Below are positions 10,602 to 51,416 of a stretch of DNA of 64,000 bases, piece after piece. The stretch lies in assembly GCA_963846575.1 (NCBI GenBank), contig CAWJWJ010000001.1:1120001-1184000 (forward strand). The letters are read 5' to 3'. The notes beneath the pieces are model-generated. The model saw only the letters and a list, made by a program, of their open reading frames with translations. It was not told the origin of the DNA and did not search any database. Source of the stretch: an uncultured Nitrospiraceae bacterium (GTDB lineage Bacteria; Nitrospirota; Nitrospiria; Nitrospirales; Nitrospiraceae). The position numbers and the translations under genes were made by a program. Positions within the stretch are counted from its first letter, which is position 1. The number at the start of each line of letters is the position of its first letter.

Positions 10602-10631
10602 ATGATAGCACCGTGCTCTCAGCGAATGCAA
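10602..10631 (-). promoter_or_regulatory. Putative sigma70 promoter for USP-rSAM-CopD operon
   Basis: TTGCAT - 18 bp - TATCAT with extended TG, about 100 nt upstream of the 10503 ATG, which has an AGGAGG RBS. Confidence 0.5.
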
Positions 10632-10668
10632 GCAAACCGGGCCTGGAGCAAGGGGCTGTGATTATCGT

Positions 10669-24077: not shown

Positions 24078-24080
24078 CGC

Positions 24081-30176: not shown

Positions 30177-30193
30177 GAATGCTCCTTACCCGC

Positions 30194-31600
30194 TCAGCCC
30201 GCATGCCGGACTTGTTCGGCCAGGCTCTCGAGTTGAGCCTGCGGCAACTTCCCCGTGGCGTTTCGAGGCAATGAGTCCACGAGATGTAACGGACGGGGAA
30301 GAAATACCGGATCGATGCGCTGTCGGAGGCCGGCGAGAATCGCGGCACGGCTGACACCTGGAGCCACGACGAAGGCGCTCAACCGGCCGTTGCCTGACCG
30401 GCCCTGATCGGGCCAATAAAAGGTGCCGTCCAGGACCCCCGCCACGCGAGTCAGGGCTGCATTCAGCGCCGCCAGGGAGGCGCGTTTGCCGGCCACCTTC
30501 ACCAGATCGTAATGCGGGCCATGCAGGAGGAATTCACGTCGAGTGCGCGGGGTAATGCGGTCCGTCAATAGGAGCCATTCGCCGACGTGGCCGCCCCTCA
30601 CCCAGGTGTGGCCGTCTTCCTGCCTCATGTGAAGCTGGTGCGCGAGCGTCCAGGCCTCTCGCTCGGTGGTACGGCGGGAAGCGATCATTCCGCCTTCCGT
30701 GCACCCATAGATTTCATGCACCGGCACGCGCCAGAGAGTTTCTGCCTGCTGGGCCACGTTGAGTGCGAGCGGCATGGTAGCGGACATAATGCCTTCGAGC
30801 CCCCGCAGCATCGTGTGTTCACTGAGATAGGCGTTGAGGTGAAAGGGCGTAGTCATCAACCAGGCCGGTGACTCCAGCCCTGCAAGATCGGTTCGAATAT
30901 CTGCCGGCAAGATCGAATTGCCGGCGTGCAGACTCCAGCCGCATTGCAGCGGCAGCATGATGGTCGTTTCCAATCCATACATGTGTTGCGCCGGCACGGT
31001 TCCCACCACGGTCCGCGGGGGAGTGCTCGAAAGATCGAACTGTTGGCCCAAGGCCTGGGCTCCCATCACCAGGGAACCCCAGCGTTTCGCATGCGCCTGA
31101 GGCAATCCGCTGCTCCCCGACGTAAACGCGATGGCGGCGATCTGGTCCGCTGGAATGGAAGGGTTGTCCGACGAGCCCACGCCCCGGCAGACCTGATCGT
31201 TGATGCGGAGGCGGGGAATGCCGCCGCTCACCTCGTCATGGTCCGTCAGGATGTAGGAGTCGGGATAACGTTGGGCGAGTTGTTGCAGCGATTGCTCCGC
31301 TCTGCAGGTAGGTAACAGGCTGATCTGCCGCGCCACCAACCCGGCGGCGAAGCCGATGGCAAACGAGTAGCGATCCTTGCAAAGATTGATCGCATACCGT
31401 TTTTTAGGCAGCCGTGCAGCCAGCGCCCACACCGATCGAAGAAACTCCTGGACGGAGTAGTCCCGCTCGCGCCGCCGGGCTAAAGTGCCGGTGCTGGAAT
31501 GTTGTTTGAGCAGCGCATAACAGGCCGGCGTGGCCACAGGGCGGGCGTAGACTCTCCGCCCATGAGAAGCCGGGGCGATTTGGGCATCGGTCGAACGCAT
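30194..31600 (-). CDS. AMP-dependent acyl/aryl-ACP ligase (XanA2-like)
   Basis: FTSGSSGLP, QHMYG, EIYGCTE, LPRNATGK. Confidence 0.85.
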   Translation of the reverse strand: MRSTDAQIAPASHGRRVYARPVATPACYALLKQHSSTGTLARRRERDYSVQEFLRSVWALAARLPKKRYAINLCKDRYSFAIGFAAGLVARQISLLPTCRAEQSLQQLAQRYPDSYILTDHDEVSGGIPRLRINDQVCRGVGSSDNPSIPADQIAAIAFTSGSSGLPQAHAKRWGSLVMGAQALGQQFDLSSTPPRTVVGTVPAQHMYGLETTIMLPLQCGWSLHAGNSILPADIRTDLAGLESPAWLMTTPFHLNAYLSEHTMLRGLEGIMSATMPLALNVAQQAETLWRVPVHEIYGCTEGGMIASRRTTEREAWTLAHQLHMRQEDGHTWVRGGHVGEWLLLTDRITPRTRREFLLHGPHYDLVKVAGKRASLAALNAALTRVAGVLDGTFYWPDQGRSGNGRLSAFVVAPGVSRAAILAGLRQRIDPVFLPRPLHLVDSLPRNATGKLPQAQLESLAEQVRHAG

Positions 31601-31881
31601 TAGCGAGTCCGGTGTCGGGCGATGTGGGTGGACAAAGCACGTAACGAGGCGAGCGCCTCCCGGTTCTCCGAACGCAACTCGACGCCATAACGTTTGGAGA
31701 TCGCCAGGGCGATTTCCAGCATGTCGATGGAATCCAATCCCAGCCCGTCACCGAAGAGGGCCGCCTCGGGATCGATGTTCTGCGGGAGCATCTCGAGCCT
31801 GAGAGCCTCCACAATGAGGCTGGCTATGTCCGGCTCTAAACCACCTTCTGTTCCGGGACTCGCTTGTATTGGTGCTCCCAT
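31600..31881 (-). CDS. Acyl carrier protein
   Basis: GLGLDSIDMLE phosphopantetheinylation motif. Confidence 0.9.
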   Translation of the reverse strand: MGAPIQASPGTEGGLEPDIASLIVEALRLEMLPQNIDPEAALFGDGLGLDSIDMLEIALAISKRYGVELRSENREALASLRALSTHIARHRTR

Positions 31882-31882
31882 A

Positions 31883-32713
31883 TCATTGTGCCTCTTGGAG
31901 TGTGGCTGCGGGGCGTTCGGTCAAGGAGTAGGGCTGGGTACGCCGGAGAGCGGTTTCCAGGAGTTCCTCCGGATCATCGAAGAATGGTTTGGGATGCAGG
32001 GGAAGGCCCAGGTCCGCCGCCTCGTTGACCAATAGACTCAGATAGTCAGCCAGGTGCTCTGCGGTATAGCTGTTGGTATCGTGAAAGGTCACAATCACCG
32101 GGATGCTGCGATTCACCACGGGTAGCGCCCCGCGCAGGAATTGGCCCCGCAACCCTGCCAGCTGTGAGCGAAAACTCCATCGCCTGAGCAGATGGATGCC
32201 CCAGTTCACTCCGTCGAAGGCCTTCACATCCGACAACAGCATGTGGAGTCGATGGCGGCTGTACCGGTACAGGGTAGACGAATTGAATAACCAGTAGGGC
32301 GGTCTCACCAGCAGAGTGGGGCGGCCCGTGATACGACCGATGTCGTCCTTTCCGTCCAGCAGAGAACGATCCAGATCCGTCACGCCCATGCCGGTATGGC
32401 TGACATGTCCGCGAGGGGTCCCGGTGTGCAGACCCAAGAGATGTCCTTCCGCATGTTCAATGGCCAACATGGCCCGGCCTTCGGTCGAGCCACCACCCTG
32501 CGGGTGCCTGGTCTGGACGAAAAAAATGGCTTTCACATCCTGCTGCAGGGGATTGCGCGCCAGTTGCCGCAACACCTTGCCGGTATTGGCGTGCGGCCCG
32601 TCATCGAACGAGAGCAGGAAGCGCAGGGCGAGCCGCGAGTCGCTCGAACCGGTCGCGACGTCGGTCACCGCTCCGGTTTTGTCCGTCCCCATGAGGGCCG
32701 CATCTGTGTGCAT
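31883..32713 (-). CDS. Polysaccharide deacetylase (CE4/NodB) domain protein
   Basis: SFDDGP, His pair, RPPY, FHD. Confidence 0.8.
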   Translation of the reverse strand: MHTDAALMGTDKTGAVTDVATGSSDSRLALRFLLSFDDGPHANTGKVLRQLARNPLQQDVKAIFFVQTRHPQGGGSTEGRAMLAIEHAEGHLLGLHTGTPRGHVSHTGMGVTDLDRSLLDGKDDIGRITGRPTLLVRPPYWLFNSSTLYRYSRHRLHMLLSDVKAFDGVNWGIHLLRRWSFRSQLAGLRGQFLRGALPVVNRSIPVIVTFHDTNSYTAEHLADYLSLLVNEAADLGLPLHPKPFFDDPEELLETALRRTQPYSLTERPAATLQEAQ

Positions 32714-36526: not shown

Positions 36527-39500
36527 TTAAGCCGCCGTCTGGTTGCGCTTGGGGAGCCAGGCGTCGAGGATGGTCTGGAGGTCCTTGGGCCGGATCGGTT
36601 TGGCCACATAGTCGTCCATCCCCGCGGCGAGACATTTCTCGCGATCACCCTTCATGGCATTTGCGGTCATGGCGATGATCGGCGTGTGGGCTGAAGCGCC
36701 TTCGATCTTTCTGATCAGGGCCGTGGCTTCGAAGCCGTCCATCTCCGGCATCTGACAGTCCATGAAGATCAATGGATAGGGGGTGCGTTCGTGGGCGGCG
36801 ACGGCTTCCCGTCCGGTGCCCACAATGTCGACCCGACAGCCCAATTTCTCCAGCATCCTGCAGGCGACCTTCTGGTTCACCGGGTTGTCCTCCGCCACCA
36901 GCGCCCGTGTAAGGACCAGTGTCTTGGCTTCGACCGGCGCGCGCTGCGTGACCGGCGGCGGCGCGAGGGTTTGTGCCGATTCACCGATCGGGGCGCCGAC
37001 CAACAGGCAGAGGCAGTCGAGCAGTGGCTTCTGTCGCAGGGGTTTCGTCAGCGAGGCATCAAGACCCGGAAGCTGCCCGGTGCTGGCTTCTCCGCGTCGC
37101 GCGATCGTCGTCAGAGCGACCGTTCGCGTCCTTGCGGTCGCAGGTTCGTTCTTCAGACCGGTGGCTGTGTCGCAGCCCTCCATTCCCGGAAGGCGCAATT
37201 CGATCAACGCGACGTCGTACGGTTGCTGGTTGGCTGCGGCGGTGCGCGCCAGCTCGAGAGCTTCGGTTCCGGTTTCCGCTTCCGTACAGTCCATTCCGTA
37301 GTCAACGAGAAGCTGCCGGACGGCTTGCCTGGTGGTGGCATGGCGGTCCATCACCAGAATGCGGCGTCCACGAAGCTGTGGCCGTGAAATCGCGGCTGAC
37401 GGAAGGGGGAGCGACGCCTCAGGAAGTGTGGCGGTAAACCAGAAGGTGCTGCCCTGGCCTGGCTGGCTCTCGATTCCGATCCGGCCCTGCATTTGGTGAA
37501 CGAGCCGCTGGCAGATGGTCAGGCCGAGGCCCGTCCCGCCGAACCGGCGGGTGGTCGAACTGTCGGCCTGAGTAAACGGTTGGAACAGTCTCGCCTGCAT
37601 GGCCTCGGGGATGCCGATCCCGGTGTCCATCACGGCAAACCTGAACGAGTCCGGTTGCCCACGGGGTTCGGGGGTTACGCGCAGGAATACCTCCCCCTTG
37701 GCGGTGAACTTGATCGCATTGGCGACCAGGTTGACCAGGATTTGACGCAATCGTCCGGGGTCGCCGAGCACGCCGGCGGGAACTGCGGCATCGACCAGTG
37801 AAATCAGCTCAAGGCCTTTGATCTGGGCCTGTTCGGCGAGCAGATCCAGGGTATCTTCTATGGTCGTCCGGAGGTCGAAGGCCAGGGTTTCGAAATGCAG
37901 TTTGCCGGCTTCGATTTTCGAGAAATCGAGGATATCGTTGACCAGGGTCAGGAGGGCGTCGCTGGATCGGCGGACCGTGTCGGCAAACTCACGTTGGTCG
38001 TCGGTGAGCGTGGTATCGAGCAGGAGTCCCGTCATTCCGATGATGGCGTTCATCGGGGTTCTGATTTCGTGGCTCATGGTCGCCAGGAAGTCGGCCTTGA
38101 GCTGAACGGCCTGAAGCGCCTCGTCTCTCGCCTTGGCCAGTTCGATGTTCTTCTGCCCCATGTCGCGCGCCGCTTGCAGCAGAGCCGCTTCAGTCTCCTT
38201 GCGTTCCGTGACATCTTTGCCCAACAGGAGAAATCCGGTGATGATGTCGCCTTCGTTGCGAAGGGCCGTGATGGTCACGAGCACGGTCAAGCGGGTCCCG
38301 TCTTTCCTGACGTAGGTCCATTCCCGTTCGTCATAGGCGTCCCGACGTGCTGGTTCGACGAGGACGTCGAACCCCCCGACAGGGCGTCCACACAAGGTAC
38401 TCAGCTCACGGCCCCGCTGTTCCATTTCGGTGGGAAGGTGCAGCAGGCCGGGTGAATGGTTGCCCACCATCTCCTCGGCCGAATATCCCAGCATCAGTTC
38501 CGCCCCCGTATTGAATGTCGTGATCAGGCCCGTCGTGTCGGTCGCAATGATGGCTACTCGCCTGGCGGCGGACAGGATGCCCATGAGTTGGGAATTGGTC
38601 GACAGGAGGGCCTGTTCCAGATGTTTACGCTCAGTCACATCGGTCGCGATGATCAAAAAAGCATTCTTCCCCTCGAATGGGACCGGCGACGCGGTCACTT
38701 CAACCGTGATCGAGCTTCCGTCGAGCCGGTAGAAATTCTCCTCGATTCTGGGCACAGCCCGCCCCGTCGCGCTCATGGCGGCCAGGCGTGCCTGCACCAG
38801 CGCACGCGAGTCCGGATGAATGAAGTCGAAGACCTGCCGTCCCGTCAGTTCGGCGGGGGTTCGCGCTCCCAGCAGATTCGCGCAGGCTTGATTGGCAAAT
38901 GCCATTCGACCGTCGCAGTTCACGAAGACCGCGGTGGGGGACAACTCCACGAGCGAGCGATACCGCGTCTCGCTGACGCGAACGGCGGTTTCCAACTGTT
39001 TGGCGGCGGTGATGTCGACGGCGATCCCCGCCAGGCGATACACCCTCCCCTCCTGATCCTTGATGGGGAACCCCCGGTCGCGAATCCACCGTACGTGTCC
39101 GTGGGGAGTCAGAATCCGGTACTCCTCGTCATAGGGAAGATAGGATTGACAGGCGGCTGCGAGCGCCACCCGTTCACGGTCTTCCGGGTGCACGCACTCG
39201 AGCCACAGCTGGGGATCTGCATGCAAGGCCTGGAGAGATCGGCCCCAGATCGTTTCGAACGCGCGGTTGATGTAGAGCAGTTGATGCTTGTCGACCGATC
39301 TGAGCCAGAATACGGCATCGATATGCTCAGCGAGCTGCCGGAAGCGTTCCTCGCTTTCTCCCATGGACGCTGGAATGCACGCTCGTCCGGACAGGTCGCG
39401 GAGGATACCGGCATATTTTCGTGAGGAGCCAACCTGCAACTCGGTTATGGATACGTCCAGATCAACCGTGGTGCCGTCCTTCCGTAACGCCGGCACTGCT

Positions 39501-40702
39501 CCGGATGAACAGGGAATCGTTCGTTGCCCGGTTCCGGGATCCGGTGAGAGCAGAAGGTCGTACTGCTTGCGATGGGAGGAAGGCACCAGCAGCGTGAGGT
39601 TCCGGCCCACGAGTTCATGGCCTGCATAGCCGAGGAGTCTGCCGACAGCGGGATTGATGCGTTCGATCCGGCCATGCTCGTCAACGACGATGATGCCGTC
39701 GCTCGTCTGTTCAAAGACCGACCCCATCGTCTCCTCATGGCCCTGCCATGGGGAACCGTTGCCATGGGAATCGGTGCCGTCCGGAACCGTCCCGGCCATG
39801 CAGGAGTCCGACTCCCGGCCGTCGTTGAGTGGATACCGCCCCTCAATAAGGGTCACGGTTCGTTCCTGGAGGTCAAGAAGCCGTTCGAATTGATCGATCC
39901 GTGCTTGGAGCTGGGTGACGGTCGCGTGCTGCGGTGCATGAGCGTCGTGGGCCACGGAGAGGGATGCCGCCGGACCCTGTAGCCACGGGGTCGTTTCGAC
40001 ATACGGGCTTAGGGCGATCTGCGCGCTAATCGCCAGGGGTTTGAACATCTGTGCTGTACGCTCGGGGATGAGATCCCGGCTGAATAGGACGATGGAAAAC
40101 CATTCCTCATCGGGGAGTGGTGCCCCGAATGCCAGCGCGGAACGGATGTCATAGGCGCCGATCCAATCCTCCCGCGCGGGACTGCTGGGGTTTCCCCCGT
40201 CCTGGAGCACATGCACGATGCTGAACGTGTGTGTGTGCGAACCGGATGGCCTTTCAGAGGAAGGGGCGGTGGAATGCGCAATCGCTCCGGCTATGTCATC
40301 GAAGAGTGCGCCGTATGGCGAGGAGTGCTCGAGTGTCTCGCGGCTGCCGACCGGGATGACGCAGCAGGCGCTGTAGCCGGTCGGGTCAGTCCAGCCCGGA
40401 ACGTCGCCGGCCGAAGCCAGGAGGGTCATGCACCTCAGGGAAGGATCGTCAGGAACCTTTCCTAGCCTGGAGGCGGCGGCGCGTCGAAGCTCCGGTGCGA
40501 GACGATGGTACTGTACCGTCTTATATAGTCGAACCAGGGGGCAACGCGGCTCTTCGGACTGACTCAGGTTCAACGACCCGTGCAGGGATCGAACGAGGCG
40601 TTCGGCGACCCTGCCCAGGTCAGTCGCGCCCGTCCCGAGCCTCAGGAGGTCGGTCGCGCAGGCCATCATGTCCCTGAGATGGAACGATCGCAGATGAAAC
40701 AT
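36527..40702 (-). CDS. Soluble hybrid histidine kinase: GAF-like N-terminus, 4 PAS, HisKA, HATPase, 2 REC
   Basis: MSHEIRTPMN, GDPGRLRQIL, GGTGLGL, FMDCQMPEMDG; PAS motifs HPEDR, HPDSR. Confidence 0.9.
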   Translation of the reverse strand: MFHLRSFHLRDMMACATDLLRLGTGATDLGRVAERLVRSLHGSLNLSQSEEPRCPLVRLYKTVQYHRLAPELRRAAASRLGKVPDDPSLRCMTLLASAGDVPGWTDPTGYSACCVIPVGSRETLEHSSPYGALFDDIAGAIAHSTAPSSERPSGSHTHTFSIVHVLQDGGNPSSPAREDWIGAYDIRSALAFGAPLPDEEWFSIVLFSRDLIPERTAQMFKPLAISAQIALSPYVETTPWLQGPAASLSVAHDAHAPQHATVTQLQARIDQFERLLDLQERTVTLIEGRYPLNDGRESDSCMAGTVPDGTDSHGNGSPWQGHEETMGSVFEQTSDGIIVVDEHGRIERINPAVGRLLGYAGHELVGRNLTLLVPSSHRKQYDLLLSPDPGTGQRTIPCSSGAVPALRKDGTTVDLDVSITELQVGSSRKYAGILRDLSGRACIPASMGESEERFRQLAEHIDAVFWLRSVDKHQLLYINRAFETIWGRSLQALHADPQLWLECVHPEDRERVALAAACQSYLPYDEEYRILTPHGHVRWIRDRGFPIKDQEGRVYRLAGIAVDITAAKQLETAVRVSETRYRSLVELSPTAVFVNCDGRMAFANQACANLLGARTPAELTGRQVFDFIHPDSRALVQARLAAMSATGRAVPRIEENFYRLDGSSITVEVTASPVPFEGKNAFLIIATDVTERKHLEQALLSTNSQLMGILSAARRVAIIATDTTGLITTFNTGAELMLGYSAEEMVGNHSPGLLHLPTEMEQRGRELSTLCGRPVGGFDVLVEPARRDAYDEREWTYVRKDGTRLTVLVTITALRNEGDIITGFLLLGKDVTERKETEAALLQAARDMGQKNIELAKARDEALQAVQLKADFLATMSHEIRTPMNAIIGMTGLLLDTTLTDDQREFADTVRRSSDALLTLVNDILDFSKIEAGKLHFETLAFDLRTTIEDTLDLLAEQAQIKGLELISLVDAAVPAGVLGDPGRLRQILVNLVANAIKFTAKGEVFLRVTPEPRGQPDSFRFAVMDTGIGIPEAMQARLFQPFTQADSSTTRRFGGTGLGLTICQRLVHQMQGRIGIESQPGQGSTFWFTATLPEASLPLPSAAISRPQLRGRRILVMDRHATTRQAVRQLLVDYGMDCTEAETGTEALELARTAAANQQPYDVALIELRLPGMEGCDTATGLKNEPATARTRTVALTTIARRGEASTGQLPGLDASLTKPLRQKPLLDCLCLLVGAPIGESAQTLAPPPVTQRAPVEAKTLVLTRALVAEDNPVNQKVACRMLEKLGCRVDIVGTGREAVAAHERTPYPLIFMDCQMPEMDGFEATALIRKIEGASAHTPIIAMTANAMKGDREKCLAAGMDDYVAKPIRPKDLQTILDAWLPKRNQTAA

Positions 40703-40810: not shown

Positions 40811-41632
40811 TCAGGACAAATGGGTCAGATAGAACGCGGCAGCCTGTGATCTCCTGGTGAGGTGCAGTTTCGTATACACATTGGCCAAATAGTTTTTTAC
40901 GGTTTTGTCGCTGAGGCCGAGTTCCGCGGCGATCTCCTTATTGGTTTTTCCCTGCGCAATAAGCGGGAGCAGGCGTTGCTCCTGAGGGGAGAGCAGATTC
41001 CGGCCACGCTCCGGTTCGCGATCTGCCAGCTTGCGAAGATAGGCGAACGTGTGCCGGGTCATCCCCGGGTCGAGATACGATTGCCCCTTGGTCACCGTTC
41101 TCAACGCATGCAGGAGGGTGTCGGTACCGGCATCCTGCAGAACATACCCGTGCGCTCCGGTGGCCACGGCCGACAGGAGGATGGTGTCGTCCAGCGTATC
41201 GGCCAGGAAGAGGATGCGCGTCGACGGGAGTCGTGAGAGCAGGTCCTTGGCCGTGTCGATCCCTTTCCCGTCCTGCACCCGCAAGTCGAGCATCACGATA
41301 TCAGGTTTCAACTGGAGAATGAGCGGCAGCGCATCCTGGCGCGACCCGGCCTCCCCGACCACGGTAAAGTCAGTGACGGATTCGAGGAGGGTCCGGATCC
41401 CCACTCGGACGAGCTCTTGCGGATTGACGATGAACACGTGGGCTGCTTTACCCTGTAGCTGATTCATAGATGTATTCCAAGTTGATGTAGGCGGTGTCTT
41501 GTGAGTACTCACTAGCCGGAGAAGTGATTCAGATTCCTTTTCCAACGCCGCCTGGGGATCGTTGGGCAGCATGGGACCGGCCGGCATGGAACCGATCGAT
41601 CGAGCGGGCTTTTGGTCGCGATGTGTTTCCAT
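40811..41632 (-). CDS. NarL/FixJ-family response regulator (REC plus LuxR HTH)
   Basis: PDIVMLD, LSPQEQRLL..GKTNKEIA..TVKNY; start 41632 has GGAGGGG RBS (alternative 41467). Confidence 0.9.
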   Translation of the reverse strand: METHRDQKPARSIGSMPAGPMLPNDPQAALEKESESLLRLVSTHKTPPTSTWNTSMNQLQGKAAHVFIVNPQELVRVGIRTLLESVTDFTVVGEAGSRQDALPLILQLKPDIVMLDLRVQDGKGIDTAKDLLSRLPSTRILFLADTLDDTILLSAVATGAHGYVLQDAGTDTLLHALRTVTKGQSYLDPGMTRHTFAYLRKLADREPERGRNLLSPQEQRLLPLIAQGKTNKEIAAELGLSDKTVKNYLANVYTKLHLTRRSQAAAFYLTHLS

Positions 41633-41738
41633 GACTCCCCTCCGTGTTTGCAGCCGATGAAGTTCTCTCTTGTGGTCATGCGGCCCCGTCAGGACGAGGC
41701 CGCGCCATTCTGTGGCCTTCGTGAAAAGGGCGCTTCCG

Positions 41739-43052
41739 TCAAGAAACCTCCGCCAGATGATTGAACTTGAGCTGTTCCATGACCGGGAGCGGACCGTGGG
41801 CTCGCACACCGACATCCACCCGTGAGAGGGCCAGCACCACATTCTTACCGCCGAACCCGAAGCTGTTGATCAGGGCCTTGCCGATCCGGGAGGGGCGTCC
41901 TTGCAGCGCGACATAATCCAGATCGCACGAAGGATCCGGGTTGGTCAGATGCAACGTAGGCGGAATAAACTGGTGCTCCATGGCCAGCGCCGTGCCGATG
42001 ACCTGGAACGCGCCGCTGGCGGCGAAGGCGTGTCCCAGGGCGGACTTAAAGGAGCTGACAGGCACGCGGTAGGCGTGGGATCCCAGCGATTCTTTGATGG
42101 CCGTCGTCTCGATACTGTCGAGCTCCATGGTCCCCAAACCGCAGGCGTTCACATACTCGACTTCCTCCGGGAACCAACTGGCAGTGACCAGGGCCCGGTC
42201 GATGGCGCGTTTTTGTTCCTTGCCCGATGCCAGGGGGCGCGCCATGGAATAGGCGTCACAGGTGAAGCCCCATCCTTCCAGCTCCGCATACATCGGCGCT
42301 CCGCGCAAACGCGCGTGATCGTAATCTTCAAGAATGAGACAGCCGGCGCCTTCTCCGAGCACCATGCCGCACCGCGTGCGATCGAAGGGCCGTGGCAGGT
42401 TGCGAATCGTGCCGCCTTGATCCGGCGCGAGGACTCGTCCCGCCTCCATTGCCGAAAAAATCGTCGGATGCAGCGGGGCTTCGGTACCGCCCGCGAGGAT
42501 GATGTCGGAATGGCCCGCGCGAATCATTTCGAACGCGCGGCCGATGGCGTTGGCGGTGGAGGAGCATCCGATGGAGTAGGTTTCGCATTCCCCGTTGATG
42601 CCGAGTGCGATGGCGATTTCCCCCGACACGGCGTTGGGGAAGGTGGAGGCCATCGTGAAGGGGCTGAGGTGTTGATGCCGCAGCATGCTGTCATGCGCGG
42701 CAAAGGCTTCCCGGAGGCCGGCGACGGAGGTGCCGAGGCAGATGGCCATCTCCGAACGGTTTTCATGCTCAATGTCCAGCCTCGCATCCCGCACGGCCAT
42801 GAGGGCCGCTGCGACGGCGAAATGGCTGACGCGGCCCATGCGGCGAACCTGTTTGCGGGGAATAAAATCCTCGGCATCGAAGTCTTTGACTTCACCGGCC
42901 AGGCAGGAGGAAAAGGGGGTGGTGTCGAAGGATGAAAGCGGTGCAATTCCGCTCTGGCCTGTGCTGAGCAAGTGCCAAAACGTCTCGAGATTATTCCCTA
43001 GCGGGGACACGATTCCAAGCCCGGTGATGACCACTCTACGCATCTGTCTCAT
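41739..43052 (-). CDS. FabF-like ketosynthase with atypical active site
   Basis: RRVVITGLG, SIGCSST, RPFD, GEGAG, KSALGH, NSFGFGG; YVNACG in place of YINAHG; GGGAGG RBS before 43052. Confidence 0.85.
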   Translation of the reverse strand: MRQMRRVVITGLGIVSPLGNNLETFWHLLSTGQSGIAPLSSFDTTPFSSCLAGEVKDFDAEDFIPRKQVRRMGRVSHFAVAAALMAVRDARLDIEHENRSEMAICLGTSVAGLREAFAAHDSMLRHQHLSPFTMASTFPNAVSGEIAIALGINGECETYSIGCSSTANAIGRAFEMIRAGHSDIILAGGTEAPLHPTIFSAMEAGRVLAPDQGGTIRNLPRPFDRTRCGMVLGEGAGCLILEDYDHARLRGAPMYAELEGWGFTCDAYSMARPLASGKEQKRAIDRALVTASWFPEEVEYVNACGLGTMELDSIETTAIKESLGSHAYRVPVSSFKSALGHAFAASGAFQVIGTALAMEHQFIPPTLHLTNPDPSCDLDYVALQGRPSRIGKALINSFGFGGKNVVLALSRVDVGVRAHGPLPVMEQLKFNHLAEVS

Positions 43053-43068
43053 GGGTTCAACCTCCCTG

Positions 43069-44367
43069 TTACGATCGTTGACTGTCTCGACATTCTTCAC
43101 CCTCATGCCACGCCATAAGGTGTTCAAGATGGTTCTGTGATACGGCGGACCGCGGGTAGTATGTGTCGTAGAAATTCAGATCCAGATGATGCGCCTGGCA
43201 GGCCACGATGGATTTGAATGCGTCGACGTGGGCGGGAAATCGTCCATAGGTGCGAACGACGTACTCGCAGAAGGCGACGGTGGCGGCGATGCTCTGCTCC
43301 GAGTGTCGCGGGATTTGCGGTTTGATGGCGGGATTGCTCCAGGGCTGGGAGTCCGGTGTGACGTAGAGACCGGAGGCGCCGAACTTGGAATCGATCAGGC
43401 TCAGCACCGCGGCCTCCATGCTTCCGACCATGGGTGGCGTGGGCGCTTCCCAGATCCCGGGAAGTCCGATGGGATTCGGCCGGCGAGGCCCGGTCGTGGG
43501 CATGTGGAATTGAAAACCGAGTCCCGGGACGAGGTGTGGCTCGATGCCCAGAAGGTGACGTCCGCTGCCGACGCTGTGAATCCCACCTCCCAATCCAATG
43601 GCCTGTTCCATGAGAAAAATGTGTTCGGCGACGATCCCCTGCTCCTGGACGGCGGTATCGCTGATGGCGCTGTCGAGATCGCGCAACGTCATCGTGCGGC
43701 GTTTCACCGGATCGTCATGGAGGTGGCCGCCGCGGCTTTTTCTGAACCGGTCAAGTCCGCAGGCCTCGTTGGCATTGTCGGTATCCACGATGAAATAGCC
43801 GTATTCGTCGCTGAGCAGGACGAGGAGGAGGTTGAGATACACGCTCGCGATTTCAGTGACCGGAATGAAGTAGGTGCTGCCCGGCCGGTTGGCGTACCAC
43901 TGATTGAAACTGAGCATGAACGGAAGCTGCCGGGGAATGTCCAACCGCTGCGCGGAGAGTTCCCTCACCTTCGTCATAGCCGGATCTTCCGGAACGGCGG
44001 ACTCGGTGACGAAGTAGGTGCCTGTGTCGTTGGTGAAAAAGAGACGGGTCGTCTGGGCCGCACAGGCGCTGGGCACCGTACGTCCCTGAAGATTCATGAT
44101 CGCCATCCCCTGGCCGTCCTCGGCCTGAGGCCGCGCCGAAAACTGCATGTCCGCCGTGTGAGGGCCGGTCTTTCCCACTCCTGCGAAGATGAGGTGCCGC
44201 TCTTCTTCCGCGCTCAAGGGTAGGGGGGGCAAAGAACTTTTATACTGCAGCGGGCCGGCGGGCAGTTCCATCCCACGGCCGAATCGCCGGGTTTTTCGTT
44301 GCTCCAGCAAGTCAAGCAATGTTCGGACGGATGCGGATCGGGAAACGTGGCACGTTGAATTCTCCAT
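43069..44367 (-). CDS. Hypothetical protein, possible FMN-dependent nitroreductase-like fold
   Basis: Strong AGGAGGAGG RBS; RKTRRF, GRTVPSACA, LMEQAIGLGG resemble nitroreductase motifs. Confidence 0.5.
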   Translation of the reverse strand: MENSTCHVSRSASVRTLLDLLEQRKTRRFGRGMELPAGPLQYKSSLPPLPLSAEEERHLIFAGVGKTGPHTADMQFSARPQAEDGQGMAIMNLQGRTVPSACAAQTTRLFFTNDTGTYFVTESAVPEDPAMTKVRELSAQRLDIPRQLPFMLSFNQWYANRPGSTYFIPVTEIASVYLNLLLVLLSDEYGYFIVDTDNANEACGLDRFRKSRGGHLHDDPVKRRTMTLRDLDSAISDTAVQEQGIVAEHIFLMEQAIGLGGGIHSVGSGRHLLGIEPHLVPGLGFQFHMPTTGPRRPNPIGLPGIWEAPTPPMVGSMEAAVLSLIDSKFGASGLYVTPDSQPWSNPAIKPQIPRHSEQSIAATVAFCEYVVRTYGRFPAHVDAFKSIVACQAHHLDLNFYDTYYPRSAVSQNHLEHLMAWHEGEECRDSQRS

Positions 44368-44462
44368 GTCCTCCTCCTTCTATCGACCGCTGGTTCGTGG
44401 GGCCCGGAAGCCGCTCGTTCGCCGGATGATGGGCCACCCTACTGGAAACATTTGAACAAGGA

Positions 44463-44482
44463 ACCTACCCGGGCGGGTAGGT
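44463..44482. promoter_or_regulatory. lux box-like operator
   Basis: ACCTACCCG-GG-CGGGTAGGT: 20 bp, perfect 9-bp arms, ACCT-N12-AGGT; between divergent genes, 1.7 kb from a LuxR gene. Confidence 0.75.
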
Positions 44483-44619
44483 GTCAAAGATTGGCCGCAG
44501 GCCTATGGTGCGATGGCGACGAGGTGAGCTTCGAGGCGGACTACGTAAAGAGCGACAACGCGCATACTTTTTCCTGTCTCCCCGCAGTCGCAGGGAGGCG
44601 CCAACAAGGAGGCATGCAC

Positions 44620-46176
44620 ATGGCAGAGTCAACTCCTACCGGATGCCCGTACCATTCATCGGCCGGCATGAATTCGAGCGCGACGCGAGTCTCTGCACCA
44701 TCCGGACGCACCCTGGCCGACCTACCCGGCCCTAAAGGACTTCCGATCCTGGGGAATCTCCTGCAACTCGACTTGAAGCATCTGCATAGCGTGCTCGAGC
44801 AATGGGCGCAGGAATATGGCGCGATGTATCAATTCCGGATCGCTCACAAGGCCGTCGTGGCGGTGACTGACAGTGACTTGATCAACGAAGTGTTGCGCAA
44901 GCGGCCGGATGCCTATCGACGTCTCAACGCCATCGAGCCGGTGCTCAAGGAAATGGGCATCAACGGGGTGTTTTCCGCCGAGGGAGATCATTGGTACCGA
45001 CAACGACGGATTGCCATGCAGGCGCTCAACAACGCCCACCTGCGTCAGTTTTTTGAGACCCTCGTGAAAGTGACGGGACGATTAAAGTCCAGGTGGGATC
45101 GGGCCGTCGCGAAGGGCGGCCACGTGGAGGCGCAGAAGGATCTCACCCGCTACACCATCGATGTGACCGCCAATCTGGCGTTCGGGTACGACGTGAATAC
45201 GTTGGAGACGGACGGCGACGATCTCCAAGGCCATCTTGAGCGGATCTTTCCCATGGTCAACCGCCGGATCAATGCGCCGTTTCCCTATTGGCACTTTGTG
45301 AAGCTGCCGGCCGACCGCGCATTGGAAGAGTCCCTGGCCTTCGTGCATAAGGCGATTCGCGGCTACATCGCTCACAGCCGGGCGCGATTGGCGACCGATC
45401 CTGAACTGCTGGCGCATCCCACCAACTTCCTGGAGGCCATGCTGGCCACCCAAGAGGGGGAAGGTTCGGAATTCACCGACGAAGAAATTTCCGGTAACGT
45501 CCTCACGATGCTATTGGGAGGGGAAGACTCCACGGCCGCGACCATGGCCTGGATATTCCATTTCCTTATGGACCATCCCGACATTCAGGCGCGTGTCCAG
45601 ACGGAAGTCGACGAGGTCCTGGGCGGGAGCGAAATGCTCACGAACTATCGCGATCATGAGCGATTGCCCTATGTGGAAGCCGTCGCTTTCGAGACCATGC
45701 GGTTGAAGTCGGTCTTCCCCGTGCTGTTTTTAGGGACCAATCAGGATGTAGAGCTGGGTGGCGTGCGGATTCCGGCAGGCACGGCCATTTTCCTGCTGAC
45801 CCGGCAATGCGGCATGCAGGAGGAATCCTTCGCGTCGCCGCACCAGTTTTTGCCCGAACGGTGGTTGACCCCTCGCACAGGAGTTCAGGAGGGACACAAT
45901 CCGAAAGCGTTCGTGCCCTTCGGGGCCGGTCCGCGTTTTTGTCCGGGAAGAAACCTGGCGCTGCTGGAGATCAAAGCCATCTTGGCGATGCTCTGCCGGA
46001 ATTTTTCGATTTCGAAACCGGTCGATGCCCCACCGGTCGGAGAGCAGTTCGGGTTCCTGATGGCCCCCGCGAATCTGTCCGTGGACATGCACAGACGGCA
46101 CGACGCGCCTGCCTCCAACGGCGAGGAGATTCCGCATGCCGGTCTGGAGCATCCGTTTGCAACCACTGTGTCGTGA
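44620..46176 (+). CDS. Cytochrome P450
   Basis: PGP hinge, I-helix GGEDST, ETMR, PERW, FGAGPRFCPG; AGGAGG RBS (start 44614 or 44620). Confidence 0.95.
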   Translation: MAESTPTGCPYHSSAGMNSSATRVSAPSGRTLADLPGPKGLPILGNLLQLDLKHLHSVLEQWAQEYGAMYQFRIAHKAVVAVTDSDLINEVLRKRPDAYRRLNAIEPVLKEMGINGVFSAEGDHWYRQRRIAMQALNNAHLRQFFETLVKVTGRLKSRWDRAVAKGGHVEAQKDLTRYTIDVTANLAFGYDVNTLETDGDDLQGHLERIFPMVNRRINAPFPYWHFVKLPADRALEESLAFVHKAIRGYIAHSRARLATDPELLAHPTNFLEAMLATQEGEGSEFTDEEISGNVLTMLLGGEDSTAATMAWIFHFLMDHPDIQARVQTEVDEVLGGSEMLTNYRDHERLPYVEAVAFETMRLKSVFPVLFLGTNQDVELGGVRIPAGTAIFLLTRQCGMQEESFASPHQFLPERWLTPRTGVQEGHNPKAFVPFGAGPRFCPGRNLALLEIKAILAMLCRNFSISKPVDAPPVGEQFGFLMAPANLSVDMHRRHDAPASNGEEIPHAGLEHPFATTVS

Positions 46177-46216
46177 GGCCGGGCGAGGGAAATGGCCGTG
46201 CGCGGAGAGACGGACG

Positions 46217-47071
46217 TTACCGTCCGAGCGATGAGGGGCGGAGCCCGTCGCTGCCGCGCGGAGGCATGTCGATGGATGGAGACGATGCGGGTTGCTGCCG
46301 GGGGGAGGGTGGAACGATCAGGCCGGCGGTACTATTCTGCCACTGGGCGACCGCCGCCCAGCGATTCTCCACGCCGCCCAGCTTTTGATACACATTCTTG
46401 AGGTGGAACTTCACCGTGTTGAGGCTGACGTGCAGAATGATCGAGATTTCCCAGTTCGTTTTGCCTTCGGCCACCCATCGCATGATCTCTTCTTCGCGCG
46501 CCGTCAGCACCGCCTGGTGAGCCGGCTGCTGGTCCTCGCCCGGACGGCTCGTCGCGCGGAGATAGGCCAGATGAAAATGTGGCGCGAGGATCTGCATCAT
46601 GGTGCGCAACCGGAGCAAGAGTTTCTGGTCGAAGTTGCTGAAGGCATAATAGGTGCAGAATCCGAGCACCCCGCGCACCCCTACCGTGAGGCAGGTCTTG
46701 ATACCGGCGTCCAGTTTGAGGTTGATGACTTCACGGGGAATCGGCATGTCCAGACAGTCTTCGCTGGATACCGTCCCGATATGGGTTTGTTGAAGAAGCT
46801 GAATCGCGGGATCGGTGACATACCCCTGGGTGGCATACAGATGGGTATGCTCCTCCCCATAGGTCGAATGTCCGATCTGTAATTGTTTTTTCTGAAGATG
46901 GAATGAGCCATTGGCGGAGAATCGATGGGGGACGAGAGAGCCGACAGCCTCCGCGAGGTCGGGAAGCTGGTCCCGATCCTGAATTTTTCGCACCCGCTCC
47001 ATGATTTCTCCCATGTGCTGAAATTCCTTGCGGGAGAGATACTGAAGACTTTCAGGTCCGCGAAAGATCAT
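46217..47071 (-). CDS. LuxR-family regulator with autoinducer-binding-like N-terminal domain (no luxI in window)
   Basis: LYATQGYVTDPAI, LTAREEEIMRWVAEGKTNWEISIIL..TVKFHLKN. Confidence 0.85.
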   Translation of the reverse strand: MIFRGPESLQYLSRKEFQHMGEIMERVRKIQDRDQLPDLAEAVGSLVPHRFSANGSFHLQKKQLQIGHSTYGEEHTHLYATQGYVTDPAIQLLQQTHIGTVSSEDCLDMPIPREVINLKLDAGIKTCLTVGVRGVLGFCTYYAFSNFDQKLLLRLRTMMQILAPHFHLAYLRATSRPGEDQQPAHQAVLTAREEEIMRWVAEGKTNWEISIILHVSLNTVKFHLKNVYQKLGGVENRWAAVAQWQNSTAGLIVPPSPRQQPASSPSIDMPPRGSDGLRPSSLGR

Positions 47072-47467: not shown

Positions 47468-48451
47468 TCAACGCTGGACCTTCAGCGTGGGGCCGAGGGC
47501 GAGCCACTTTGTCGGGCCGATCGCGGCCATGTGAGGGAGATGGGCGACATACCAGAACACGAGGTCCTGCTCCTGCACGCCTTGATTGTCTTCATCATAG
47601 CCGAGCTGCCCGCGGGCTCCGAATACCCAGGGGATGTCTTCGTCGGGATTGGCCCGGCGGATCGCCACATCGTGGTCGGCGAAATTATCGCGTTCTCCGT
47701 CGTCCTTGAGTGGTGCGTAGCCCTCGCCCGGCAGGATCCAAATGCCATGTCCGGTCGGCTGATCACGGACGAACCAGATTCGATGGGTGCTGAGGTTTTT
47801 GACGTCGTTGCGTTCGTTCACGTATTTTTTCCAGCCCGGTCCCCAGCCCTGATCGGATCCTCCGTCATCGTGGAGGAAGACCTGGTCCATGCCGTTGCCG
47901 TTAATGTCAAAATCAAACCGCCAGTAGGGATGGTGTACGTGGTCGGTGTTACAGGAAAGGCCGCGACTGTGAACAACGGGCCGTAACTCGCCATCGTCTG
48001 AGAGGTGCCAGGATTGATAGATATGGTATTCGCCGATCCTGGCGTAGATGCCGAGTTCCAGCCACTTCACCCCCCCTACGCTGGAGCTCTCGACACAGAC
48101 CTTGTGGTTACCGCAGTTCACAATCGGGACCAGATCCTGCCAGCGCAACCGGTCTTGAAAGGGGCCGCAGCGGCCGCTGTCGGCGCGGGAACCGAACCAG
48201 GTGAAGGGATTCCACCACCGGCGTTCTTTGACGTATTTCACCCGCACGACCGGCATGCTGGCTTTGGCCAGAACCGGTTCACCGCCGTAGACAAGATGTC
48301 GAAGCGCGAGGCCGGTGCTGTCTTTGACTTCGTAGTCGAAACTCCAGCGCCCCCAATCGAGATGTTCCGACAGCTGCTCCGCCGAACCGGGCAGCGGCAG
48401 GGCCAAGGCCAGGGTCCAGAACAGCACGGCAAGCAGTGCAATGCGTGTCAT
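47468..48451 (-). CDS. Secreted copper amine oxidase catalytic-domain-like protein
   Basis: Signal peptide from ATG 48451; WGRWSF, ARIGEYHIY, HVHHPYWRFDFDING, DLVFWYVAH. Confidence 0.6.
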   Translation of the reverse strand: MTRIALLAVLFWTLALALPLPGSAEQLSEHLDWGRWSFDYEVKDSTGLALRHLVYGGEPVLAKASMPVVRVKYVKERRWWNPFTWFGSRADSGRCGPFQDRLRWQDLVPIVNCGNHKVCVESSSVGGVKWLELGIYARIGEYHIYQSWHLSDDGELRPVVHSRGLSCNTDHVHHPYWRFDFDINGNGMDQVFLHDDGGSDQGWGPGWKKYVNERNDVKNLSTHRIWFVRDQPTGHGIWILPGEGYAPLKDDGERDNFADHDVAIRRANPDEDIPWVFGARGQLGYDEDNQGVQEQDLVFWYVAHLPHMAAIGPTKWLALGPTLKVQR

Positions 48452-48470
48452 GCGGTATCCTTTCGCTTGT

Positions 48471-49268
48471 CTATCGGGGCGGTTCATCCCCAGCGTCCAG
48501 CACACGATCATCGGTCAGATCCACCTGCGCCCAATACCTGGGGTCGCCATCCTGTCCCTGGGAGAAGGTAATCCAGATGACCCGGTGTTGATAGCCGGGA
48601 TCGTGCTTGAAGAATCCGCGATCCGGCTGCATGAGGAGCCCGTGTCCCTGCAGAGACCCCACCTTTCCGGCGAGCCGTGCATCGGCGCGGGCTAACTCGA
48701 TCCCCCGCTGAACATCCTGCGGTCCTTCGGGGGGCAGATAGCCTTCCTGTCGCGAGGCCTGCAGCACGGACCGGTCCTTCATGCGCACGAAGATGGCGAC
48801 GTTGTTACTGTAGCTGAAGTAGGTCAATCTGGTGAATCGCGCCTCATTTCGGCAGCAACCGTAGGAGACTTTGCCTTCCGGCGGCAGACGATCCGCATCA
48901 ATAAACGTCCAGCGGGTACCCAGGAGGGCAGTCACCTTGGGATCGCCTTCGGCCGCTTTTCGCATCGCGGTCATCTCCGAGTCCGACAGGACGGCTGCGT
49001 CATTGGGCGACCGCATGACGGCCGCCTCGATGACCGTTCCCGCCATCTTGGGTTTGATGTGCCCGACGGATTCGTCGGCCGTAAATCCCAGGGTGTGTCT
49101 GGTTGGTATGTGAGCCGGAAGCGGCGTTTTGGGAATGGCGGTTTCTGGATCTTCCGGCCCGAACGGCCCACGAGAACCGGCATCGAGGCTGCAGCCGATC
49201 TGGATGATGCAGGGCAGCGAGACGAGGCAGAACGAGATGGCTAGTCGGCGGTTCACGCGGGGCCTCAC
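48471..49268 (-). CDS. Putative lipoprotein resembling copper amine oxidase N2/N3 domains
   Basis: Possible lipobox IQIGC; two helix plus sheet repeats (AAEGDPKV, ELARADARL), ends VDLTDDRV. Confidence 0.45.
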   Translation of the reverse strand: MRPRVNRRLAISFCLVSLPCIIQIGCSLDAGSRGPFGPEDPETAIPKTPLPAHIPTRHTLGFTADESVGHIKPKMAGTVIEAAVMRSPNDAAVLSDSEMTAMRKAAEGDPKVTALLGTRWTFIDADRLPPEGKVSYGCCRNEARFTRLTYFSYSNNVAIFVRMKDRSVLQASRQEGYLPPEGPQDVQRGIELARADARLAGKVGSLQGHGLLMQPDRGFFKHDPGYQHRVIWITFSQGQDGDPRYWAQVDLTDDRVLDAGDEPPR

Positions 49269-49786
49269 ACGACCGCCAGTTTGCCGGCGACGCCGAGCGC
49301 CAATCTGGACAACTGGGCCGCGGCCTTGATGACGGCGGCCCGTTTCTTCCGGGAAGCCCCATCGAGCACGGCCCTGCTCAAGAGATCTTTACACACGGTG
49401 ATGTCGTCGGCTTCAAAGGGAACGATGCGGGCTATCGTGTCGTTGTTGAAGGTATTGGCCAGTTGTACATAGAGATTGGAGATTTCTGCTGCGTAGATCC
49501 CTCGCCGCAGAGGGTCGTTCTTATAGGTTTCAAACTTCTTCCGCAGAGCGGCTACGGCATCCAGCAATGCCGTTTGACGAACTTTGGTCTCATCCTGACG
49601 GCAGACCGCGAATTCTACGGTCCCTAACTGATCGACCAGGCTTTGTGCTTCGTCCCGCGCATGGTCCACACGCGTAGCCAGTTGTTCGATATCAGTGGCG
49701 GCGCTTTCGGCTGTCTCCATCAGTTGCTTGATCAAACTGTCATTGTTTTGGAGATAGGTGACCACTCCCTCGATGCTGCGGTTCAT
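49265..49786 (-). CDS. Hypothetical alpha-helical protein
   Basis: GGGAGG RBS, GTGA overlap with downstream gene, heptad-like composition. Confidence 0.65.
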   Translation of the reverse strand: MNRSIEGVVTYLQNNDSLIKQLMETAESAATDIEQLATRVDHARDEAQSLVDQLGTVEFAVCRQDETKVRQTALLDAVAALRKKFETYKNDPLRRGIYAAEISNLYVQLANTFNNDTIARIVPFEADDITVCKDLLSRAVLDGASRKKRAAVIKAAAQLSRLALGVAGKLAVV

Positions 49787-49797
49787 AGAGGCCTCCC

Positions 49798-50505
49798 TTA
49801 CTGCCCCTCGTCCTTCTTCAGGCGGTCGAGGAGTTCCACCAGGTCGGCGGTGAAGTTCTGTGCCCGCGCCAATCCGCCGACCCGCAGGATACGCGCGCCG
49901 ACGATTTCCTCCAGCGCGTCATTCACCGTGCGTGAGCGATTCAAGACTCCCATGATCTGCTCGGATCGGCCGGGAGCGTGATCCAGGATTGCGCCGACGA
50001 ATTCAGGATCGACGGATGCCAGAGCCGACTGTCTCGCGAAGCGCGTGAGTTGAGCATGGAGGGTCGCCGTCTGCTTCCATGAGTCGTTGAGGGCATTGGC
50101 CGTATCCCGGAGACCGCAGAAATCCTCTTCAAATTGGTCCCAGACTGCCTTCTCCAGTCCCTGTGCATCGGCCATATACATGAGGCTCACGAGATAGGCC
50201 GCGGCATAGGCGGACTCGCCCTTTTTGTTGGTCACGTTCCGGAACGACTCCATAACAAAGCGGTGTTTGGTTTCGAGGGTCTGAAGCGATTTGAAGCTCT
50301 CATGCAGGGAACTGCGGGCATCCTCCAGGAATTTGATTCGGGCTTCTGTCTCTTTCTGGAACAGATCGATGTTGGTCTGCGCGGCATCGATCTTTATGCC
50401 CTCCAACTGGATGAGATCCCGCACGGAGCTGCTGTGGATGGAATGGCAGCCGGTTGCAGCGAGGAGTACCAGAACCATGAATATCGGCGTACGGAGCCGA
50501 ATCAT
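49798..50505 (-). CDS. Hypothetical alpha-helical lipoprotein
   Basis: AAGGAG RBS before 50505, lipobox AATGC. Confidence 0.7.
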   Translation of the reverse strand: MIRLRTPIFMVLVLLAATGCHSIHSSSVRDLIQLEGIKIDAAQTNIDLFQKETEARIKFLEDARSSLHESFKSLQTLETKHRFVMESFRNVTNKKGESAYAAAYLVSLMYMADAQGLEKAVWDQFEEDFCGLRDTANALNDSWKQTATLHAQLTRFARQSALASVDPEFVGAILDHAPGRSEQIMGVLNRSRTVNDALEEIVGARILRVGGLARAQNFTADLVELLDRLKKDEGQ

Positions 50506-50537
50506 GGCCCGCTCCTTCTTCCCGCCGTCCGGCCCGG

Positions 50538-51170
50538 TCATCGGCGCACCTGACGTACCGCATCGGCCAGCGCCTGGGTTTCGGACCGACTGACCGTGAC
50601 ATCAATGTCCAGGTATTGCTTGATGATGGCATTAATCCGGCGAAGGGCTTCGACATTCGTCCGGTACTGATCGAACGCGGTGAGGTCCAGGGTGGAAGTC
50701 GCCTGCGAGTCCGCCGCGACGCGCTGTTCGACGCGTGCAATAAGCTCGGGGAGCTGCTGCACTAGATTGCTCATGTCACCCGAGCCGGCCGAAAAGACCG
50801 GTTGCCCGTTCGGCCCCTTGCGCTCCGGAAGGGAATTCAGACGGATCTGATTCACCACTGCAATGATCTCCGGGCCCAGAAGTGCGGCATCGTCTTCAGT
50901 GATGGCCCCATCCGGAACGCCCGTCAACGTGGGATTGGTCGTCGCCCACTGCAGCGCGAGATTGAGCTTGAGGCGGGTTTGAATGAAGCGATACCACTGG
51001 ACATGTCGGGTGGTGATGTTGCTCACGAGTTCACGGTACTGCTGCATGAGCCTCTGGTGTTCGACATATGCCTGGTCCTTCGCGGCGAGCGCCTGTTTTA
51101 TTTCAGGCGGCGTCGTGCAGGCAGCAAGTAGGGCACACATCACCCAGCTACATAGGCGCGACATTCTCAT
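50538..51170 (-). CDS. Hypothetical alpha-helical lipoprotein
   Basis: GGAGG RBS before 51170, lipobox LAAC. Confidence 0.7.
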   Translation of the reverse strand: MRMSRLCSWVMCALLAACTTPPEIKQALAAKDQAYVEHQRLMQQYRELVSNITTRHVQWYRFIQTRLKLNLALQWATTNPTLTGVPDGAITEDDAALLGPEIIAVVNQIRLNSLPERKGPNGQPVFSAGSGDMSNLVQQLPELIARVEQRVAADSQATSTLDLTAFDQYRTNVEALRRINAIIKQYLDIDVTVSRSETQALADAVRQVRR

Positions 51171-51416
51171 CGGGACGCCTCCCCGTACAAAATCCCGGCG
51201 CAAGACCGCAGTTGGAATAGGCAAACTACATACCTCACCGGGATGAATGAATTGTTGGCCGGAGTATGCGTGGATTGCCTGAGCTACAAGGGAAAATCCG
51301 AACATGTCGCAGATTGCTACATTTTAGGACTTTCGAAATTCTGTACTCATTCAGATACGGCTGTATCGAAGCCAATACAGTGGGGAATACCGGGCTGGAG
51401 ATTGCCTGTAGTTGCC

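Follow-up and report, generated by a model that had tools for sequence, protein, structure and literature searches.

Does a LuxR-family regulator whose genome has no luxI respond to a molecule made by the enzymes encoded next to it? The question is raised by a locus in a 64,000-nucleotide stretch of DNA from an uncultured Nitrospiraceae bacterium (GCA_963846575.1, contig CAWJWJ010000001.1; the whole stretch analysed is called the window), where a LuxR gene, a predicted palindromic operator and two enzyme genes, encoding a nitroreductase-fold protein (the flavoenzyme) and a FabF-like ketosynthase, lie together. This LuxR-solo module is conserved and, within the literature searched, undescribed: no description of a LuxR-flavoenzyme-ketosynthase operon in Nitrospira was found, most subscription journals being outside the coverage of the search. 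We read the module as a second autoinducing LuxR circuit of Nitrospiraceae that does not use N-acyl-homoserine lactones (AHLs) and in which the two-enzyme operon would take the role of luxI and make the ligand; we put the probability of this reading at about 55%. The names of homologs put the host among Nitrospira, which form microcolonies and are major nitrite oxidisers of soils and wastewater plants.

The regulator (284 amino acids, minus strand, positions 46217-47071) has a GerE domain above cut-off, with the helix motif VSLNTVKFH. The flavoenzyme gene (432 amino acids, 43069-44367) and the ketosynthase gene (437 amino acids, 41739-43052) lie on the same strand, and the ketosynthase start that has a ribosome-binding site, at 43052, leaves a gap of 16 nt to the 432-residue reading frame. 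A 20-bp palindrome at 44463-44482, the sole strong copy in the genome, consists of the arms CCTACCC and GGGTAGG around a free 4-nt centre, and an accessory cytochrome P450 gene (518 amino acids, plus strand, 44620-46176; Pfam p450 E 1.5e-95) is inserted between luxR and this box. An earlier note on this stretch had described the same layout, and all its reading frames are present, the 16-nt gap included; the lux box that it placed between divergent enzyme genes is found as a predicted, conserved operator facing the enzyme operon.

The module was followed through a sample of 121 genomes of the family. Orthologs of the regulator (E 5e-70 or better) and of the flavoenzyme (at least 58% identity) fall in the identical 31 genomes, which hold 32 module loci with collinear luxR, flavoenzyme and ketosynthase genes; the ketosynthase is seen in 30 of these, the contigs of the other two ending inside the flavoenzyme gene. 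An exact 18-mer pattern of the box, occurring once for each module, is present in 30 of the 31 genomes; among the 90 others a single one has it, and that genome is 70% complete. Co-occurrence and box conservation, which the earlier note had proposed to check, are thereby confirmed. A GTDB scan gave a similar picture from the side of the ketosynthase: among the best 80 of 253 relatives, 62 have a Cys-Cys-His active site and 18 are canonical FabF proteins. The flavoenzyme is present in 59 and LuxR in 55 of the 62 loci, the misses coinciding with contig ends or a sequence gap, and the box in 54 of the 57 loci with room for it, while the 18 canonical FabF loci show no flavoenzyme, LuxR or box. The records of the 62 loci are titled Nitrospira, Nitrospiraceae or Nitrospirota, bar one 'uncultured bacterium' and one Nitrosospira, with N. 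moscoviensis (L115) and N. defluvii (L158) among them. In a betaproteobacterium, Sulfurirhabdus autotrophica, the flavoenzyme and ketosynthase genes are likewise neighbours, as judged from the consecutive accessions TCV85830 and TCV85831; this genome was not among the matches of the GTDB ketosynthase scan, and the Sulfurirhabdus-type ketosynthase retrieved two canonical FabF loci only in a metagenome scan and none in a viral scan. On these comparisons LuxR solo, box, flavoenzyme and ketosynthase are inherited together as a unit. In one genome (G382; C54, C57; L088, L089) the module is present twice, both copies having a box of their own, and one of the two adjoins a partial luxI at a contig end.

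The box reads as its own sequence on the opposite strand at 18 of its 20 bases, more than any other of the 48 ACCT-N12-AGGT sites that the 4.2-Mb genome contains. With a matrix built from the orthologous boxes, a genome scan gave it 31 bits, against 14.9 for the runner-up site. A wider regulon was not found, all other matrix sites staying below 15 bits and one-mismatch sites being rarer than a reversed-pattern control. When the DNA upstream of the flavoenzyme gene was searched for palindromes without bias, the same arms came up in nearly all module loci, and no such arms in four loci of flavoenzyme paralogs without LuxR. A TAnnnT hexamer stands 21-22 nt from the box, on the enzyme side, in 54 of 54 loci, against a background for such a -10 hexamer of 0.5% per position. 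In the window the putative promoters would comprise TAGGGT (44436-44441, minus strand), 21 nt off the box toward the flavoenzyme-ketosynthase operon, and TATGGT (44504-44509, plus strand), 21 nt off the opposite end toward the P450 gene; such a far-side hexamer occurs in 18 of 18 loci with this divergent P450 gene and in 7 of 36 without it, among kin that are not independent. A sigma-70 consensus scan did not list these promoters, as expected if the box replaces the -35 element.

Three loci with room have no standard box. They have one common variant instead (L120, L126 and L128), upstream of the flavoenzyme gene and with the -10 hexamer at the same spacing. The two of them in which LuxR is included carry a variant helix motif that is present in none of the other 52, one more locus being unreadable, and this pairing of variant box and variant helix probably represents one evolutionary event; such loci offer a natural specificity variant. 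Since box and LuxR helix vary together, the box appears to be tied to this LuxR and not to the downstream regulator. Being a palindrome of about 20 bp, at activator distance from a -10 element and tied to a cognate LuxR, it has the features that define a lux box, and we predict that it serves as the operator of the module.

The regulator is a solo, as its genome has no luxI. A Pfam search found none in the window or in the genome (99.93% complete), but it left the positive-control genomes blank as well; the same Pfam search, however, finds luxI in 37 of the 121 family genomes and in 0 of 10 of the same genus, and tblastn of 14 Nitrospira LuxI proteins against the genome gave no match at E 0.01, and because of these two results we regard luxI as missing. 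What the earlier note had said of the window, that it contains no luxI, therefore holds for the whole genome by both methods. N. defluvii lacks luxI and N. moscoviensis has one, in agreement with the available text of PMC5767232, which reports lineage I Nitrospira genomes, e.g. N. defluvii and ND1, to be without luxI.

In Pfam the solo reaches 66.8 bits for the GerE helix-turn-helix (HTH) domain and 20.9 bits for Autoind_bind, below the cut-off of 23, and a genome-wide Pfam search for autoinducer-binding domains did not report it. The top Foldseek matches of its predicted fold are CviR, SdiA and RhlR, ligand-domain-only structures included; on this model it has the N-terminal autoinducer-binding fold and the C-terminal GerE HTH that define the LuxR family. 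At the TraR positions W57-Y61-D70-P71-W85-G113 the pocket reads H-Y-D-P-S-C, the W85 and G113 columns being taken from the RhlR alignment, with three of six residues kept. All 32 of the 32 aligned orthologs (31 for the W57 column) retain Y61, D70 and P71, and W57 (F/H/L/M), W85 (S/T) and G113 (C) are always replaced. Judged by its residues, the solo lies outside the definition of an AHL-sensing LuxR by its conserved six-residue pocket, and the altered ligand pocket noticed earlier is borne out. Proteins of this kind have been listed before: a table in the available part of PMC4338825 lists D8PAV3, a solo of N. defluvii, with the corresponding pattern F-Y-D-P-gap-C and leaves its ligand open, and the accessible supplement of PMC8553950 gives two sludge LuxR solos the pattern F-D-P-S-C. 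The best NCBIfam model for the solo is the EpsA-like LuxR (TIGR03020), which it matches with 94 bits over nearly its full length and which is among the nearest Atlas clusters; it differs from that family in remaining below the 170-bit cut-off. No exosortase context was noticed in the module loci, though no search aimed at exosortases was made.

The AHL systems of Nitrospira, NspR1/NspI (PMC8553950) and NjpR/NjpI (PMC5767232), so far as the available text of these sources goes, resemble the module in the LuxR fold, the chromosomal slot and the presence of about one box per genome, as well as in the box itself, 20 bp long with outer ACCT/AGGT and a free 4-nt centre and serving two divergent genes. 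They differ in that the module has no LuxI, that its helix motif is SLNT and not SERT/TERT, that the inner box arms are others, and that the solo shares about 28% identity with the AHL receptor and has three of the six pocket residues replaced. For a direct comparison 19 of the 37 luxI loci were used, from genomes without the module and on longer contigs. The luxR/luxI pair stands beside uvrC in 17 of the 19, uvrC or UPF0114 is found in 18, and the module of the window occupies the same uvrC-to-UPF0114 slot. A sister box of 8-4-8 form, with the same ends and different inner arms, precedes luxI in all 19 of these loci and in the 5 of 5 module loci that have luxI. According to PMC8553950 (available text), NspR1 binds this AHL box, which drives both nspI and a gene divergent from it. 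It is single-copy in 10 of the 12 genomes carrying it, so that a regulon of one box is normal here. In the available part of supplement 1 of PMC8553950, Nspbox68, whose listed first 15 bases match the module box, lies on the nspI scaffold upstream of a hypothetical protein, which we infer to be the flavoenzyme; its reporter responded 1.06-fold to NspR1 with N-octanoyl-homoserine lactone (C8-HSL), compared with 197 and 14.

The ketosynthase resembles FabF, yet departs from it in the active site. It scores 424 bits against the model of the beta-ketoacyl-acyl carrier protein synthase II (KAS II) subfamily, above the 387 cut-off, and 421 bits against the FabF equivalog, below the 494 cut-off, and a normal FabF is encoded elsewhere in the same genome. 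The triad of elongating FabF is Cys163-His303-His340 (PMC7138838, available text). Like FabF/KAS II, the ketosynthase keeps the nucleophilic Cys (C163), the second His (H341), the Lys (K336) and the GFGG gate, while C304 replaces the first catalytic His, and among 120 close homologs the His303 position is Cys in 117 and Ser in 1, with 2 not read and His in none. By this residue the protein falls outside the elongating KAS II triad; in a tree with 13 other ketosynthases, the Cys-Cys-His proteins are set apart from the rest by a long branch with full support. Loss of the first His is described in the available text of PMC4661987 as the hallmark of KS0 domains, from which no elongation is expected, and by this likeness the ketosynthase may catalyse acyl transfer or non-decarboxylative condensation. 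It differs from KS0 domains in being stand-alone, outside any polyketide synthase.

Single-sequence Pfam, NCBIfam and PDB searches with the 432-residue protein gave no match, and 32 of 90 relatives match PF00881, weakly, with E up to 0.1. The structural model (predicted local distance difference test, pLDDT, 93.6) has as its top matches two stand-alone putative nitroreductases, 8cqs (Z 15.4, 178 residues aligned, root-mean-square deviation 2.7) and 3hj9 (Z 14.8), and the azoline oxidases BmdC (Z 13.6) and ThcOx (Z 13.2), which gives the modelled protein a nitroreductase fold. This fold is common to the azoline-oxidase side of the superfamily (BmdC, ThcOx, McbC) and to the stand-alone BT_0217 and Reut_A1228, from which the flavoenzyme differs by an identity of 11-17% and by about twice the single-domain length. 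No cyclodehydratase or nonribosomal peptide synthetase partner, of the type that accompanies azoline oxidases, was identified in the module loci. From the model we infer dehydrogenation, bearing in mind that a shared fold does not show function. N-terminal arginines and an RTxPS motif are conserved in the family and presumably bind flavin mononucleotide.

The third enzyme proved variable. The earlier note had counted the P450 with the other two enzymes as one set; the flavoenzyme and the ketosynthase are indeed core, and the P450 was rejected as a core gene because its orthologs occur in 5 of the 31 module genomes only (5 of 121 in the family), always at the module. It may nonetheless be under the same box, to judge by promoter geometry. 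An unrelated second P450 (24-26% identity) follows the ketosynthase in 11 of the 62 loci; 33 of 62 have neither P450 and none has both, and the two alternate among close relatives. This suggests that a P450 was recruited twice, as a tailoring or clearing step on the module product.

Past the operon, 60 of the 60 loci with enough sequence have as their first match a signalling gene of the same orientation; it is a response regulator in 31 loci, a kinase in 13, a canonical-type LuxR match in 4 and a short LuxR in 12. The short LuxRs, of about 180 residues, retain the initial helices and a DNA-binding domain of the AHL type and have lost the AHL-binding core; an AHL-type box follows in 10 of the 12, no luxI lies in those loci, and three of the genomes with a short LuxR past the operon (G140, G092 and G380) have no luxI anywhere. 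A short LuxR with an AHL-type box and no luxI would fit a module that has taken over the output of the AHL system, and such a protein is possibly a ligand-independent activator or repressor. The short LuxRs lie at L105, L106, L117, L120, L122-L126, L128, L130 and L136, just past the ketosynthase or the second P450.

On our reading of the module as an autoinducing circuit, the ligand-bound LuxR would bind the box and recruit RNA polymerase to the enzyme operon, and also to the P450 gene where a second -10 element exists. The ketosynthase would load an acyl chain on Cys163 and, having no first His, would probably not carry out decarboxylative elongation but pass the chain to another nucleophile, which may be a beta-ketoacyl unit or an amine or thiol acceptor. 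The flavoenzyme could then dehydrogenate or aromatise this product to the ligand, closing a positive loop, and the interchangeable P450s would tailor or inactivate it. The ligand may, as the earlier note proposed, be an oxidised fatty-acyl compound. Output would run through the co-oriented signalling gene past the operon; some genomes have the AHL receptor, or a derivative of it without the pocket, in this place.

Several observations weigh against this reading. What the comparison establishes, from sequences, is a unit of regulator, operator and operon, not that the operon makes the ligand. The 121-genome and 62-locus sets overlap and their genomes are related, so the counts are not independent, and the three gene trees conflict at 6-9 of 23-32 supported splits. 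uvrC or UPF0114 lies within the fetched stretch in only 19 of the 32 module loci; of the remaining 13, 5 are on short contigs, 6 adjoin genes that we take to be flagellar-like, and 2 are elsewhere. The luxI boxes differ in promoter geometry: only 1 of 24 loci has TAnnnT on the luxI side at a distance of 19-23 nt. Among the genes of the module no acyl carrier was identified, so that the acyl donors must derive from general metabolism. The survey of downstream genes used a limited query set, and signalling genes abound in the slot even where the module is absent, which weakens the argument from read-through. Distant relatives of the flavoenzyme have no ketosynthase beside them, and two of them adjoin divergent HTH regulators, an arrangement that resembles an inducible redox response. 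The invariant Y61, D70 and P71 may leave room for an amide-type ligand, AHLs included. Finally, in the available text of PMC7154725, the operon adjacent to pluR in Photorhabdus is the target, pcfABCDEF, and the synthase PpyS was found separately, by deleting stand-alone ketosynthases.

The main rival is suggested by that last example: the solo would sense a molecule made elsewhere, either by a neighbour or in the metabolism of the cell itself, and would switch on the enzymes as PluR switches on pcf (PMC7154725, PMC4414361, available text); the enzymes would be its output, making another small molecule or modifying a lipid. We consider this unlikely, though a serious competitor. The evidence from box, promoter and co-occurrence fits it equally well, and the stand-alone flavoenzyme relatives beside divergent regulators agree with it. 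It accounts less readily for the slot and box architecture that the module has in common with luxR/luxI, for the AHL receptor or pocket-less derivative found past the operon in 16 of 60 loci, and for the distribution of luxI, present in 3 of 31 module genomes and in 34 of 90 others, again among related genomes that are not independent. Moreover, the second KAS III gene of the genome, which adjoins what we take to be a phosphate-regulator-like gene, resembles an ordinary FabH. The earlier comparison with Photorhabdus stood in part. The solo keeps the pocket Tyr and Asp, like PluR (with PpyS, photopyrones) and PauR (with DarABC, dialkylresorcinols), and a condensing enzyme with an oxidising or aromatising partner would parallel DarB and the aromatase DarA. 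The parallel does not extend to the synthase, since PpyS, apparently a derivative of FabH, has the triad Cys-His-Asn (PMC4578411, available text) whereas the module ketosynthase is FabF-like and Cys-Cys-His with a nitroreductase-fold partner, nor to gene order, the pluR-adjacent operon being output (PMC7154725); the pocket, too, reads (F/H/L/M)YDP(S/T)C and not TYDQCS or TYDQYI. By its defining residues the module thus stands outside the AHL, PluR/PauR and FabF families.

It is rather improbable that the solo eavesdrops on AHLs or close analogues released by nitrifiers nearby and switches on enzymes to quench them by oxidation, transacylation or other means. The invariance of Y61, D70 and P71 speaks for such a role, as does the retention of the module in a genus without luxI (0 of 11 genomes), and some P450s oxidise AHL side chains. 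W57, W85 and G113 are replaced in every ortholog, however, a ketosynthase with a dehydrogenase-like fold suggests synthesis over hydrolysis, the P450 is missing from most genomes, and PluR and PauR keep Tyr and Asp and yet sense non-AHL ligands (PMC4414361, available text). Least credible by far is that the palindrome is a luxR terminator hairpin, a site for the neighbouring NarL-type regulator or a chance occurrence among mere neighbours: a consensus scan lists it as terminator-like on the minus strand and luxR lies directly upstream on the same strand in most genomes, but its arms show no compensatory changes (the search pattern partly presupposes this, though the unbiased search found the same sequence), a run of at least 5 T follows it in just 8 of 54 loci, it persists where a P450 separates it from luxR, its distance to the -10 hexamers is fixed, and it changes together with the LuxR helix, whereas the regulator downstream differs from genome to genome.

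If the module is indeed an autoinducing circuit, a wider proposal follows which we advance tentatively, at somewhat less than even odds. The Cys-Cys-His FabF derivative and the nitroreductase-fold oxidase would produce a LuxI-independent class of autoinducer, providing the sole LuxR-type signalling in luxI-less Nitrospira such as N. defluvii and acting upstream of the AHL system in N. moscoviensis; in some lineages it would have replaced the AHL input by way of a pocket-less receptor copy, with two unrelated P450s swapped in to change or clear the signal. In these two cultured species the module points to a receptor, an operator and a pair of enzymes as candidate synthase, and since the published Escherichia coli reporter format has proved workable with the sister AHL system, direct tests can now be made for the ligand of a LuxR long listed as an orphan. 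Should the enzymes be output, the ketosynthase triad and the flavoenzyme family would still represent uncharacterised chemistry.

The neighbouring genes were also considered. A NarL-type response regulator (about 218 residues, 40811-41467, minus strand, start inferred from ortholog length) is the first gene past the ketosynthase and a candidate output by read-through, followed by a hybrid PAS histidine kinase (36527-40702, minus strand) that belongs to the signalling-rich slot. The two-component pair reported earlier is thus present, and was rejected as a fixed member of the module because the gene in the position after the ketosynthase varies among genomes. Between uvrC and the solo, a five-gene operon (47468-51305, minus strand) comprises a copper-amine-oxidase-like gene and four unknowns; it occurs in 16 of 32 module loci and in 0 of 19 luxI-only loci and has no box, and was rejected as a module part on account of these 16 loci and the missing box. 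An Ape-like lipid cluster (20747-32713, minus strand) encodes a glycosyltransferase, ApeP- and ApeI-like dehydratases, a ketosynthase pair, MMPL and LolA-like proteins, an acyltransferase, an AMP-ligase, an acyl carrier protein and a polysaccharide deacetylase; its genes are not among the recurring neighbours of the module, and it was rejected as a partner.

Among relatives of the flavoenzyme, P0261 is an 863-residue protein whose C-terminal half is 40% identical to it and which has no NCBIfam match. ArsM-like and ArsS arsenosugar genes are found near two paralogs (33-37% identity; L037:2198-10815 and L038:2652-6785, the genes of L038 being named by their similarity to those of L037), and a plasmid-borne relative lies near an arsenic-resistance cluster. 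Farther off in the window, at 6992-12312 on the minus strand, radical SAM/SPASM, USP and B12-radical SAM genes stand together with repeated PCP_red domains.

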